64,000 bases of DNA, taken from Vicinamibacteria bacterium. Lineage in GTDB: Bacteria > Acidobacteriota > Vicinamibacteria > Vicinamibacterales > JAENWD01. This document shows, piece after piece, positions 18,778 to 51,655 of the stretch (the stretch's first letter is position 1; every line of letters begins with the position of its first letter). The notes under the pieces were generated by a model. It ran no database searches, had not been told where the DNA came from, and saw nothing but the letters and a program-made list of their open reading frames with translations. The stretch covers positions 104,700-168,699 of the forward strand of contig CAWDZE010000008.1 in assembly GCA_963806705.1 (NCBI GenBank), written 5' to 3'. A program made the position numbers and the translations under genes.

Positions 18778-19140
18778 TTGGTGCCCGGTCTCCGAGTGTT
18801 CAGCGCGGGTTTGTTGCTGACGGCCCTGTTCGCCGGCAACGCCGCCGTGTGCGCCGCTGCAGCCCGAACCGCTGACGCGGAGATGGCGTGTTGCAAGGCC
18901 GGCCATCGCACGTGCGGGCGAATGACCAGCGCGAGCGATTGCTGCAAGTCGCGCCAGCAGACCGCCCCTACCAGCCCAGTCGCCAAACAGGTCGATGTCG
19001 CGGTCGTGATTGCTCTCCCGGCCAGCGTCCCGGCGCTGTTCGCGTTGGTCACGGAAAGTCGCCTGGACGTGCCGGCGGACGGCACGTGGAAGCGGCCGCA
19101 CGATCCCCCCCACCTCCACGCATTCTCCATGCTGATCTAG
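18778..19140 (+). CDS. Cys-rich leader protein of the metal operon (DUF2946-like architecture)
   Basis: Signal/TM segment, MACCKAGH..C..DCCK, Pro-rich C-terminus RPHDPPHLH. Confidence 0.65.
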   Translation: MVPGLRVFSAGLLLTALFAGNAAVCAAAARTADAEMACCKAGHRTCGRMTSASDCCKSRQQTAPTSPVAKQVDVAVVIALPASVPALFALVTESRLDVPADGTWKRPHDPPHLHAFSMLI

Positions 19141-19195
19141 CTCCTCGCGGCTCACAACGCAGCGGCCGGTATTCGTCTGCTTCAAGGAGTGCGAG

Positions 19196-19573
19196 ATGCG
19201 GGAACGTGTGTACGCCGCCGCCGGGCTGATGTCAGCTCTGACGACGCTCGTCTGTTGAACGCTGCCGATCTTGTTCGTGAGCCTAGGTCTAGGCTCCGTC
19301 ATTGCGTCGGCACTTAGCGCAGCGCCCTGGATCGCGTCAGTCGGACGCCACAAAAACGGCGTCTTTCTGACCGTCGCGGCGCTGCTCGCCTTTAACTATT
19401 GGATCGCCATTGCGCGCCCTCGCCGCCAGGCGTGTCCACCGGGAGAGGTGTGTCACATCGACAGCCCGGCCATGCGCGTCAATCGCTGGCTGTACTGGGC
19501 GTCGGTGGTGATTTACCTGGTCGCGGTGGTGGTGACGTACGCGGCGCTGTGGTGGGTGGAGAGGCAGTCATGA
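19196..19573 (+). CDS. MerT-like mercury/heavy-metal transporter, predicted selenoprotein (Sec21, TGA 19256-19258)
   Basis: AAGGAG RBS then ATG 19196: MRERVYAAAGLMSALTTLVC-TGA-TLPILFVSLGLG, in frame with ORF 19271-19573. The TGA sits in the MerT CC motif; loop CPPGEVC is retained; 3 TM helices. Confidence 0.8.
19263..19312 (+). promoter_or_regulatory. Candidate bacterial SECIS element (MerT-like gene)
   Basis: Upper stem GAGCCTA/TAGGCTC (19279-19296) with GGTC loop; lower stem TGCCGA/TCGGCA; loop lies 27 nt after UGA; uses rare CTA codons. Confidence 0.7.
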
Positions 19574-20415
19574 ACACGACCGCGGCCTGCCTGGCCGCCG
19601 CGCTTTGCGCCCTTCCCCAGGCGACCCTAGCCTCTGGACATGGGCCGGTCTTCGGAGCCACAACGCCGACGCTTGGCAAAGGGGGATGGAGCGTCGACAC
19701 GGCATGGACGCTGCGCGCCAGTGAGCCTGAGGGCGCAGAGCAGATGCTCAAGAGCATGATCAGTTTCGGCATCACCGAGAACCTGCAGCTCTCGGCATCG
19801 CTGCCCCTCGCAACCACGAGCGGAACACTGCCTGGGGCTCGCATGATGAGCCTGATGTCGAATGAGCGGGAACTCGAGGTGCTGGCCGGCTATCGGTTTC
19901 AACGCCGCGTGGTCGGCATCGGCGGGCGGCAGGAGAGTACCGTCTACGCCGGGTGGACGCTTCCATTTGAATCGACACGGGGAGGCATCCGGGCGTCACC
20001 GTCGCTGTACCTCGGGGCCGCAACCGGTTACGCGTCGCGGTCGCACTATGTCTGGGTGGGAGGCGGCCTGCAGCACTTCACCGAGGACCAGGGCGACCAG
20101 CTGGGGGCCAGCCGCTTCGCCAGCGTCGTCTATGGCTTCCGGCCCAAGCCGTTGCGCGTCGAGGCGCACAAGCCCGATGCGCGGCTGTTTGTCGAGGCGA
20201 CTGCCGAGGATCGGCAGCCGGACAAGGCGGGCGGAGTCCGGCAGGCCACCGCCGCCCGATCCGTGTTTGTTGGACCGACGACGCTGATCCTGTATAAGGC
20301 GTTCGCCTTTGAGGCGGGGGTGCTCTTTCCGGCCTACCAGCGTGTGGACGCGGGACGGAGCAAGGAGCGTCTCCGCGTGGCCGTGAACCTGAGTTATTTC
20401 TTTTGGCTGAAATGA
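19570..20415 (+). CDS. Putative outer-membrane beta-barrel transporter
   Basis: ATGA overlap with the merT-like gene; signal peptide then HGPVFG; alternating aromatic beta strands; ends VNLSYFFWLK. Confidence 0.75.
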   Translation: MNTTAACLAAALCALPQATLASGHGPVFGATTPTLGKGGWSVDTAWTLRASEPEGAEQMLKSMISFGITENLQLSASLPLATTSGTLPGARMMSLMSNERELEVLAGYRFQRRVVGIGGRQESTVYAGWTLPFESTRGGIRASPSLYLGAATGYASRSHYVWVGGGLQHFTEDQGDQLGASRFASVVYGFRPKPLRVEAHKPDARLFVEATAEDRQPDKAGGVRQATAARSVFVGPTTLILYKAFAFEAGVLFPAYQRVDAGRSKERLRVAVNLSYFFWLK

Positions 20416-20425
20416 GAGGTGCGAT

Positions 20426-20926
20426 ATGCGGCGGACCCTTCTGGCGTTGGCGGCAGTCATGCTGGCGGCAACTTCCGTGCGTGCCGAGTTGCGCCACGCT
20501 GAAATCAAGACCCTGGGGATGGATTGAGAAATCTGCGCCCACGCCGTGAGCGTGGCCATGCGGAAGATTCCAGGCGTCAGGGCAGTCCGGGTGAGCCTCA
20601 ACGACGGGTCGACGCTGCTCGACTTGACTCCGAGTAACACCGTGACCCTCGCCCAATTGCGGACCGTTTTGAAGAACAGCGGGTTCGTGTCCAAAGAGGC
20701 GCGGCTTGAAGCGGCCGGGATGGTGACTGCGGACGGTCCGGGACTGTTGTTTACCGTGGCCGGGACTGGGGAGAAGTTCACGCTCTTGCCGGGCCTGACC
20801 ACTCGTGCGGCGTATGAAGGTCTGAAGGGACGCCTGCAGGAGGGGCCTCTTGCGCTGCAGCTCAAGGGGACAGCACGCGCCCCTGACGAGAAGGCGCCAT
20901 CGCTGGTACTCGACGCGGTGCAGTAA
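20426..20926 (+). CDS. Periplasmic HMA (MerP/CopZ-like) protein with C-terminal extra domain, predicted selenoprotein (Sec34, TGA 20525-20527)
   Basis: GAGGT RBS, ATG 20426, signal peptide, then KTLGMD-TGA-EICAHAVSVAMRKIPGVRAVRVSL = GMxCxxC motif as UxxC; in frame with ORF 20546-20926. Confidence 0.82.
20533..20563 (+). promoter_or_regulatory. Candidate bacterial SECIS element (HMA gene)
   Basis: Stem CCACGC/GCGTGG (20539-20555), loop CGTGA with G at position 2, 17 nt after UGA; possible lower stem CTGCG/TGCGG. Confidence 0.55.
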
Positions 20927-21063: not shown

Positions 21064-21675
21064 ATGCTCAAGCTGCTTGGCATCGTCATACTCCTGGTTG
21101 TCGCGCTTGTGGCGGGCGTGTTCGTCTACGCCAGAAGCACGGGCCTGCGAGCCCGCAGCCAGCCCGGCACACTTGAAACGGTCGTCGCGCGTGCTGTGCG
21201 TGCCGCTGCAATTCCACCCGACGACCGTCAGCGCCGCAATCCGGTGCCCGCATCTGCGGAGGCGGTCACTCACGGGATGGAGCACTTCGCCGATCACTGC
21301 GCGACCTGCCACGCCAACGACGGGAGCGGAAAGACCGATTTCGGACGCGGGCTGTTTCCGAAGCCGCCGGATTTGCGCGCGGCTGCCACGCAGGGCCTGA
21401 CCGACGGCGAGTTGTGCTACATCATTGAAAACGGCGTCCGGTTCACCGGTATGCCCGCATTCGGATCGGCCGACGCCGCGGGAGCCCCAGATACGTGGCA
21501 TCTGGTCCACTTCATTCGCGAACTTCCGCGGCTCACGCCCGAGCAGATCAAGCAAATGGAAGCGCTGAATCCGAAGGCACCCGACGAGATTCGGCGGCAG
21601 ATCGCCGAAGAAGAGCGGCGGAATGGACGTAGTCGACAGCCCCAGCCCCCTCCGTCAAAGCCGCACCATCATTGA
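21064..21675 (+). CDS. Membrane-anchored monoheme cytochrome c
   Basis: HCATCH, PKPPDL, GVRFTGMPAFG, WHLVHFIREL; AAGGAG RBS; His-rich tail. Confidence 0.92.
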   Translation: MLKLLGIVILLVVALVAGVFVYARSTGLRARSQPGTLETVVARAVRAAAIPPDDRQRRNPVPASAEAVTHGMEHFADHCATCHANDGSGKTDFGRGLFPKPPDLRAAATQGLTDGELCYIIENGVRFTGMPAFGSADAAGAPDTWHLVHFIRELPRLTPEQIKQMEALNPKAPDEIRRQIAEEERRNGRSRQPQPPPSKPHHH

Positions 21676-51579: not shown

Positions 51580-51655
51580 TGGCGTCCCCGACGGGATTCG
51601 AACCCGTGTTTTAGCCTTGAAAGGGCCACGTCCTGGGCCTCTGGACGACGGGGAC
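51580..51655 (-). tRNA. tRNA-Glu (anticodon TTC)
   Basis: 76-nt cloverleaf GTCCCCG...TGGCC-CTTTCAA-GGCTA...GGTTCGAATCCC...CGGGGAC-GCCA. Confidence 0.96.

Follow-up and report, generated by a model that had tools for sequence, protein, structure and literature searches.

The locus analyzed here raises the question of whether an in-frame UGA in a gene for a small, apparently exported protein specifies selenocysteine (Sec) or ends translation, and in what process such a protein takes part. The gene lies on the + strand at 20426-20926 of the window, by which we mean the whole 64,000-nt stretch of DNA under study. It starts with ATG at 20426, ends with TAA at 20924-20926, and encodes 166 aa with the motif GMD-U-EIC when the UGA at codon 34 (20525-20527, +) is read as Sec34, an assignment based on the sequence and on comparison with orthologues.

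Reading of the UGA codon in the HMA gene

The first-pass annotation had described the product as an exported protein that has an HMA domain and a Sec residue in UxxC, and this description held, given the match to PF00403, the Sec machinery of the genome, and the conservation of either TGA or a Cys codon at this position. The HMMER search that it had proposed, with U replaced by C, gave 25.2 bits for residues 31-87 against the PF00403 cut-off of 24.8. It had also argued that a true stop would leave a 33-aa peptide and a GTG ORF without ligands; the table-11 ORF from GTG 20546 is indeed 126 aa long and has neither the signal peptide nor the two ligands. A base-call error at 20527 was ruled out by independent contigs with an identical TGA: a contig from run X3 covers 20481-20631 with 0 differences and one from run X1 covers 20491-20657 with 1 difference, although one of the two runs may be the source sample. 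For distant relatives, alignment is confined to the surroundings of the two UGA/SECIS elements of the locus. No RNA run was listed among the holders of the sequence, which carries no information about expression. None of the orthologues stops at codon 34; the codon is TGA or TGC/TGT, never TAA or TAG, and the frame stays open after it.

A hairpin, CCACGC-CGTGA-GCGTGG (20539-20555, +), follows the UGA, with a 6-bp stem and a 5-nt loop carrying G at loop position 2. The first-pass annotation was correct about the hairpin and its G, but the 17 nt that it gave as the distance from the UGA to the hairpin applies to the loop; the stem begins 11 nt after the UGA. The bSECIS model in PMC13188914 has a loop of 3-9 nt, a stem of 4-16 bp, a G in loop position 1-2, and a loop 16-37 nt after the UGA, and the hairpin of the HMA gene falls within every one of these ranges (5-nt loop, 6-bp stem, G at position 2, 17 nt). 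Taken alone it is modest (z -1.82), and 219 of the 14155 TGA triplets sampled from the genome (1.5%) have a perfect hairpin of a similar kind after them; it is more than chance because it is conserved. Among the 23 TGA forms, pairing in the stem is kept in 99.3% of 138 cells. Double changes occur at 2 stem pairs in 7 cells, a level reached by 0 of 500 shuffles, with kinship inflating this covariation. Codons 39-43 show a synonymous freeze, using the majority codon in 103/105 cases versus 278/497 elsewhere. Of the Cys forms, 4/5 no longer have the hairpin. L065 keeps a remnant SECIS after TGC, and such remnants after Cys codons have been described (PMC1794560). The Asp codon before the UGA (20522-20524) is GAT in 23/23 order-level Sec forms and in 67/70 metagenome sequences despite a GC content of 67%, and before TGC it is GAC in 3/5 Cys forms; this preference is possibly a context effect on read-through.

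The source genome (G000) contains selA, selB, and selD above their cut-offs and a tRNA-Sec. Its SelD gene (L009, G000:C20:289286-290212) has an in-frame TGA of its own in the motif CAG-U-ASK. Orthologues of the HMA protein were found in 25 of the 401 genomes of the order, a tally that, like the other tallies over the 401 order genomes, takes in the unpublished genome G319, on which nothing else in the analysis depends. Codon 34 was TGA in 23 and TGC in 5 of the 28 full-length loci of the order, a count that leaves out L034, a C-terminal fragment in G000. This isolated piece of the C-terminal domain (L034:1500-1675; G000:C3:332383-332553) corresponds to residues 110-166 with 63% identity, has no start, HMA domain, or operon, and by its sequence looks like the relic of a second copy. 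A 401-genome sample of the phylum added 17 loci, 10 with TGA and 7 with Cys. The motif was also found in 70 of the best 80 of 391 metagenome loci, with TGA in 70/70 and no match in the other 10; these loci were retrieved with the neighboring barrel gene, and the set is skewed to close relatives and includes near-duplicates. Among 81 database homologues, none has CxxC and most begin at about Met45, and a search of genome contigs for homologues with the single HMA protein returned only one distant match from Chitinophaga.

An unrooted tree of 43 of the 45 rows (L106 and L109 were left out) requires at least five Sec/Cys changes, four of them forced by well-supported branches, and Cys forms are nested among Sec forms. 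Sec and Cys paralogues occur within one genome in two cases, L061/L065 (G361) and L047/L063 (G249). L116 and L117 are distant, Cys-only relatives (GLACAFC and GMACPFC) that keep the HMA and second domains and have weak barrel neighbors; they suggest that the Sec clade may be only a later, narrower part of the module's history and distribution. SelA co-occurs with the family in 22/24 cases, which is not discriminating because SelA is present in 314/401 genomes of the order.

We put the probability that the UGA of the HMA gene encodes Sec at about 97%. That the TGA is instead a true stop or a sequencing error in a pseudogene is most improbable. Such a reading could draw on the high background of SelA, on a metagenome merT gene with TAA, on the frameshifted merT gene of L022, and on G140. 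This genome is ~100% complete and has the TGA form, selA and selB were not found in it, and its tRNA-Sec match (50.4 bits) resembles the tRNA-Ser cross-match in G000; the TGA form is probably not translatable there. By contrast, TGA is retained across proteins that are 30-70% identical and is aligned to Cys in others, the hairpin covaries, the downstream frame is intact, and the independent contigs are identical; in practice, the conservation already refutes a pseudogene. We also considered and rejected TGA as a Trp codon (code 4), as neighboring genes end in TGA in the same genome and homologues carry Cys. Three JGI proteins read the TGA in this way (GMD-W-EIC).

Domains of the HMA protein

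An AlphaFold2 model based on 28 sequences (pLDDT 91) consists of a signal helix, the HMA domain, and a second domain at residues 88-165. The signal peptide claimed in the first-pass annotation is predicted here from an n/h/c pattern, a helix at residues 2-16 of the model, and a nearly invariant A20-E21; together they place the putative Sec-pathway signal peptide at residues 1-20 (20426-20485, +), with cleavage between Ala and Glu in V-R-A-E-L. The HMA domain, assigned by profile and predicted fold, spans approximately residues 22-87 (20489-20686, +) and includes G-M-D-U34-x-x-C37-A-H39. It superimposes on Ccc2a (1fvq) with a Z of 9.2 and an rmsd of 1.4 over 72 aligned residues. Asp33 and His39 are invariant in the HMA proteins. 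We take an Asp before the first ligand to resemble Zn/Cd-type HMA sites, for example that of ZntA; the Cu(I) HMA domains compared mostly have Thr or His at this position.

The extra beta-rich C-terminal domain noted in the first-pass annotation was recovered in the model, in which 78 aa are predicted to fold separately as three strands, a helix, and two strands (residues 88-166; 20687-20926, +). A PDB profile search matched the HMA part alone. In a search with the whole model, the matches to the C-terminal domain were weak (Z 5.3-5.7) and included NlpE (2z4h, 5.7), RPA (8c5y, 5.7), and 3k0y (5.5), the matched regions of which we take to be OB folds. The predicted topology would fit a five-stranded barrel with a helix between strands 3 and 4, and a weak case can be made for an OB-fold-like domain. 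The domain has no Cys, no His, and no invariant column, is variable, and is shortened in many homologues; we take its role to be docking or spacing, not that of a second metal site.

Sec in HMA domains is already known. UxxC occurs in the HMA domain of cation-transporting ATPases (PMC13188914, Table 1; also the table of PMC9312934), and the present protein differs from these in its signal peptide, its added OB-like domain, and the lack of an ATPase fusion. The UxxU metal-binding (seleno)protein model NF041115 also has Sec among the metal ligands of an HMA fold, but here the motif is UxxC and the score is 26.1 bits against a cut-off of 95. With MerP (TIGR02052) and CopZ (NF033795), the common features are an HMA domain, exported in MerP, and a neighboring MerT-like gene; the scores are 26.5 bits versus 92.55 for MerP and likewise far below the cut-off for CopZ. 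Unlike MerP and CopZ, the protein has GMD-U-xx-C-A-H instead of GMTCxxC, two domains, a barrel partner, and a lineage without MerA. The GOS selenoproteome table lists two "Mercuric transport protein MerP" sequences (PMC2398784), which may belong to the same family, the comparison being with the table entry alone. No NCBIfam model covers the HMA protein above its cut-off, and Table 1 of PMC13188914, a 2026 inventory of 119 selenoprotein families, contains no secreted stand-alone UxxC HMA protein; the secreted UxxC family with HMA and OB-like domains is absent from it.

The four-gene cluster

The HMA gene is the last of four tightly coupled genes on one strand, preceded by genes for a Cys-rich leader, a MerT-like protein, and an outer-membrane barrel. 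The operon, the second selenoprotein, the barrel, and the leader did not appear in the first-pass annotation. The cluster of four genes is conserved among soil Acidobacteriota and contains a second likely selenoprotein.

This second selenoprotein is a MerT-like inner-membrane protein of 125 aa (19196-19573, +) with a Cys-Sec motif, LVC-U-TLP (TGA at 19256-19258), and a second Cys pair, C-x5-C. Its SECIS, GAGCCTA-GGTC-TAGGCTC (19279-19296, +), has its loop 27 nt after the UGA and is near-invariant in 59 metagenome loci; the GGTC loop is presumably the same as that of E. coli fdhF. The part after the UGA scores 26 bits with PF02411 (MerT; cut-off 32.9), and C-U and C-x5-C are present. A MerT-like gene lies within ~1.5 kb of the HMA gene in 20/28 genome loci, with CU in 14 and CC in 6, and in the metagenome loci the codon is TGA in 58/59 and TAA in 1. 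In L022 (G012), the MerT-like frame changes shortly after the SECIS and the barrel gene also seems broken, from assembly error or decay. MerT-family selenoproteins with a CU motif have been reported (10.1101/2022.07.06.499078), and the MerT-like gene may belong to that group, to which we liken it by description and by the shared CU motif. NF045683, a MerT/CopZ fusion-like selenoprotein model, joins MerT and HMA in one protein; here the two functions are split between two genes, both of which have a Sec codon and a SECIS, and the score is 12.2 bits versus 375.

The third gene (19570-20415, +) encodes a protein of 281 aa that is predicted to be a COG4313/FapF-like outer-membrane beta-barrel with a signal peptide at residues 1-21. 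The model has 12 strands and an N-terminal segment and resembles FapF (Z 22.2, rmsd 2.3, 221 aligned residues) and Pput2725 (4rl8; Z 20.7, rmsd 2.4, 219 aligned residues). A barrel match adjoins the HMA gene in 28/28 genome loci. The PF13557 profile matches 0/25 barrel members, and an atlas cluster in which 77% of members have PF13557 scores 0.98. The family comprises 1544 proteins at E <= 1e-20, one of them named Vicinamibacterales, and its atlas clusters are mostly from Acidobacteriota; no barrel match was found in the plasmid collection. After the predicted A-x-A-type cleavage site, residue 3 is His in 119/120 members, as X-G-His following Ala or Gly; position 1 varies between S, N, A, and T, and residue 2 is Asp in several phylum members. 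In the present protein the mature N-terminus would be Ser-Gly-His (19633-19641, +), and X-X-His is predicted from the sequence to form an ATCUN-like Cu(II)/Ni(II) site, provided that cleavage occurs exactly after Ala21. Met63 and Met96 are invariant. Compared with Pput2725 and FapF (COG4313/PF13557), the barrel is only 12-13% identical, has the conserved X-X-His and Met residues, and stands in a context of metal genes rather than of hydrophobic solutes or amyloid. The COG4313 channel whose structure has been determined to date is associated with hydrophobic molecules and not with metals, and the N-terminus of Pput2725 occludes the channel lumen (PMC4493636).

The first gene (18778-19140, +; start codon uncertain) encodes a Cys-rich leader of 120 aa with a hydrophobic N-terminus, the pattern CC...C...CC, and a C-terminal RPHDPPHLHxFxLLI-stop, a predicted metal-sensing uORF of the CutF/CruR kind. 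It is present, by clustering, in 9/28 genome loci, and its pattern occurs in 40 of the best 80 of 391 metagenome loci; it has no match in Pfam or NCBIfam, DUF2946 included. The filters for CutF-like proteins given in PMC9973294 are a length of <150 aa, a signal-like N-terminus, and PP within 15 residues of the end. The leader has 120 aa, PP at 11-10 residues from its end, a same-strand gene downstream, and a signal judged by eye. It shares with CutF/CruR (DUF2946) a small, exported-type, Cys-rich product with a C-terminal PP, the first place in an operon, and a short spacer (PMC9973294, PMC9426467). It differs from the CutF/CruR proteins described there in having CC...C...CC and HDPPHLHxFxLLI-stop, not CXXC and RAPP, and in that the regulated gene is a MerT-like selenoprotein gene. 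Cys-rich CutF-like members mostly precede copper genes, although not all CutF-like leaders are Cu-specific (PMC9973294). The 55-nt spacer between leader and merT (19141-19195, +) has a pyrimidine-rich tract directly after the stop codon and an SD, AAGGAG, at 19184-19189. TCC or CCT lies at most 14 nt from the leader stop in 30/33 distinct spacers, and the pairing probability of the SD is 0.82 versus 0.73 in shuffles, so that the stem-loop over the SD is barely above composition-matched shuffles. A translational pause at the last leader codons would fit the sequences because the distance from motif to stop is fixed, and metal turns such operons on in the case of CutF or off in the case of CruR (PMC9426467).

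A gene for a membrane-anchored c-type cytochrome that ends in His-His-His follows the operon (21064-21675, +) and is an accessory neighbor rather than a core member; a related gene is found close to the operon in L074, and in L069 one precedes a cluster for multicopper oxidase and CopB. Approximately 5 kb upstream is a gene for a copper protein of the azurin/plastocyanin family (PF00127; 13228-13731, -). Neither the cytochrome gene nor the azurin-like gene is conserved beside the operon in the other loci. The sole tRNA gene in the window is tRNA-Glu at 51580-51655 (-).

Proposed metal and transport route

The three products downstream of the leader span the outer membrane, periplasm, and inner membrane, with the barrel in 28/28 and the MerT-like gene in 20/28 loci, and for this reason a trans-envelope metal relay is, judged from sequence, the probable function of the operon. 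The HMA protein would likely be a periplasmic, Sec-containing metal chaperone that works with the barrel and the MerT-like protein. Cu(II) would be caught by the X-X-His N-terminus, which would plug the lumen of the barrel in the manner of the Pput2725 N-terminus, and the conserved Met residues of the barrel would be suited to Cu(I). The HMA domain would then take the ion through Sec34 and Cys37, possibly with the assistance of Asp33 and His39; the selenolate of Sec34 would stay deprotonated and be re-reduced more readily than a thiol in the oxidizing periplasm, with the OB-like domain acting as a docking or spacer module. Next, the Cys-Sec pair of the MerT-like protein would accept the ion and pass it into the cytoplasm. 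Meanwhile, the exported Cys-rich leader may sense metal during translation, and its pause near the stop codon may open or close the predicted spacer hairpin that covers the ribosome-binding site of merT. Import is the direction suggested because MerT is an importer and the channel is plugged.

As for the metal, we consider it about an even chance that it is mainly copper in this lineage; copper is favored because of the X-X-His/Met barrel, the CutF-like leader, the metal-related neighbors, and the lack of MerA over the cut-off. The neighbors outside the MerA-linked clade include multicopper oxidases, CopB, YcnI-like DUF1775 proteins, P1B ATPases, TonB receptors, PepSY_TM proteins, and MerR-family regulators, in a scan that covered 104 of 334 called ORFs in the first set and 64 of the second set. 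Most loci lack copper genes nearby, several of those that have them are near-duplicates, and no such neighbor is conserved. The TGA form of G140 (L050/L077) sits on a heavy-metal island.

It is unlikely, in our judgment, though a serious alternative, that the operon is instead a mer-type mercury uptake module that uses the very high affinity of Se for Hg(II) and either feeds MerA or traps mercury where there is none. The named families matched are indeed MerT and MerP, yet the MerP score is far below and the MerT score below the cut-off. A supported clade of eight (95/93) has the order barrel-HMA-MerT(CC) wherever the MerT gene was seen (6/8), and MerA is present in 6/8 genomes of this sister clade versus 20/401 in the order, with kin that are not independent; it adjoins the cluster in two loci, L073 and L087. 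MerR-family genes lie near 5/28 genome loci, and in L069, of the same lineage as the source, the adjoining regulator is best matched as an Hg-type MerR at 149.6 bits (cut-off 150.85). Outside this clade, by contrast, none of the 17 genomes, G000 included, has MerA over the cut-off; the best match in G000, which is 97.8% complete, is 329.7 bits versus 454.45, and in 47 metagenome loci of >3 kb no ORF clustered with the two MerA proteins. To our knowledge, X-X-His barrels and CutF-like leaders are not components of mer operons, and the two would be foreign to such a module.

We likewise hold it to be improbable, though again a serious alternative, that the system has a wide specificity, is dedicated to another soft metal (Zn, Cd, Ni, Co, Ag, or Au), or handles several metals according to its island. 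The invariant Asp33 and His39 would suit this reading, as would the facts that ATCUN sites bind Ni(II) too (PMC7701195) and that, according to PMC9973294, CutF-like leaders are not tied to copper in every case; a Cd/Zn-type ATPase (L077), CusB/CzcB-type pumps, and an ArsP permease are among the neighbors. The conserved Met-rich barrel loop and a leader that is Cys-rich and not His-only nevertheless point to copper, and no recurring Ni/Co or Zn uptake genes were found among the scanned neighbors. A purely redox role, in which UxxC and CU are redox centers and the operon moves electrons or reducing power rather than metal, is very unlikely: most UxxC selenoproteins are thiol-type oxidoreductases (PMC13188914), and a cytochrome c gene follows the operon here and lies near two other loci, but the fold is HMA and not thioredoxin, the cytochrome is not conserved, and the recurring neighbors are all metal-related.

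Returning to copper, a fuller proposal can be made only tentatively, with the odds against it: the locus may represent an undescribed Se-dependent copper import route in soil Acidobacteriota, from an ATCUN-plugged COG4313 channel, in what would be a first metal role for that family, through a selenolate chaperone to a Cys-Sec MerT-type permease, under the control of a His-rich, metal-sensing arrest peptide. The module would have been recruited into the mercury islands of the sister clade, and gene callers would hide it by truncating both selenoproteins. We found no description of the operon in the open literature, though subscription journals, preprint supplements, or RefSeq annotations may contain one. 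The HMA protein is almost certainly a selenoprotein, in an apparently undescribed metal-transport operon with two selenoproteins, in which Sec in MerT, as in HMA domains, has precedents.

How ionic copper enters Gram-negative bacteria is not yet well understood, and few transport proteins contain Sec. The operon points to a possible metal role for a channel of the COG4313 type. Because natural Sec/Cys pairs exist in a small soluble HMA domain, the effect of Se on metal affinity and selectivity is directly testable. The HMA/barrel family is sizeable, yet its database entries are truncated hypothetical proteins, and it adds a concrete family to the selenoproteome of bacteria that are abundant in soil.
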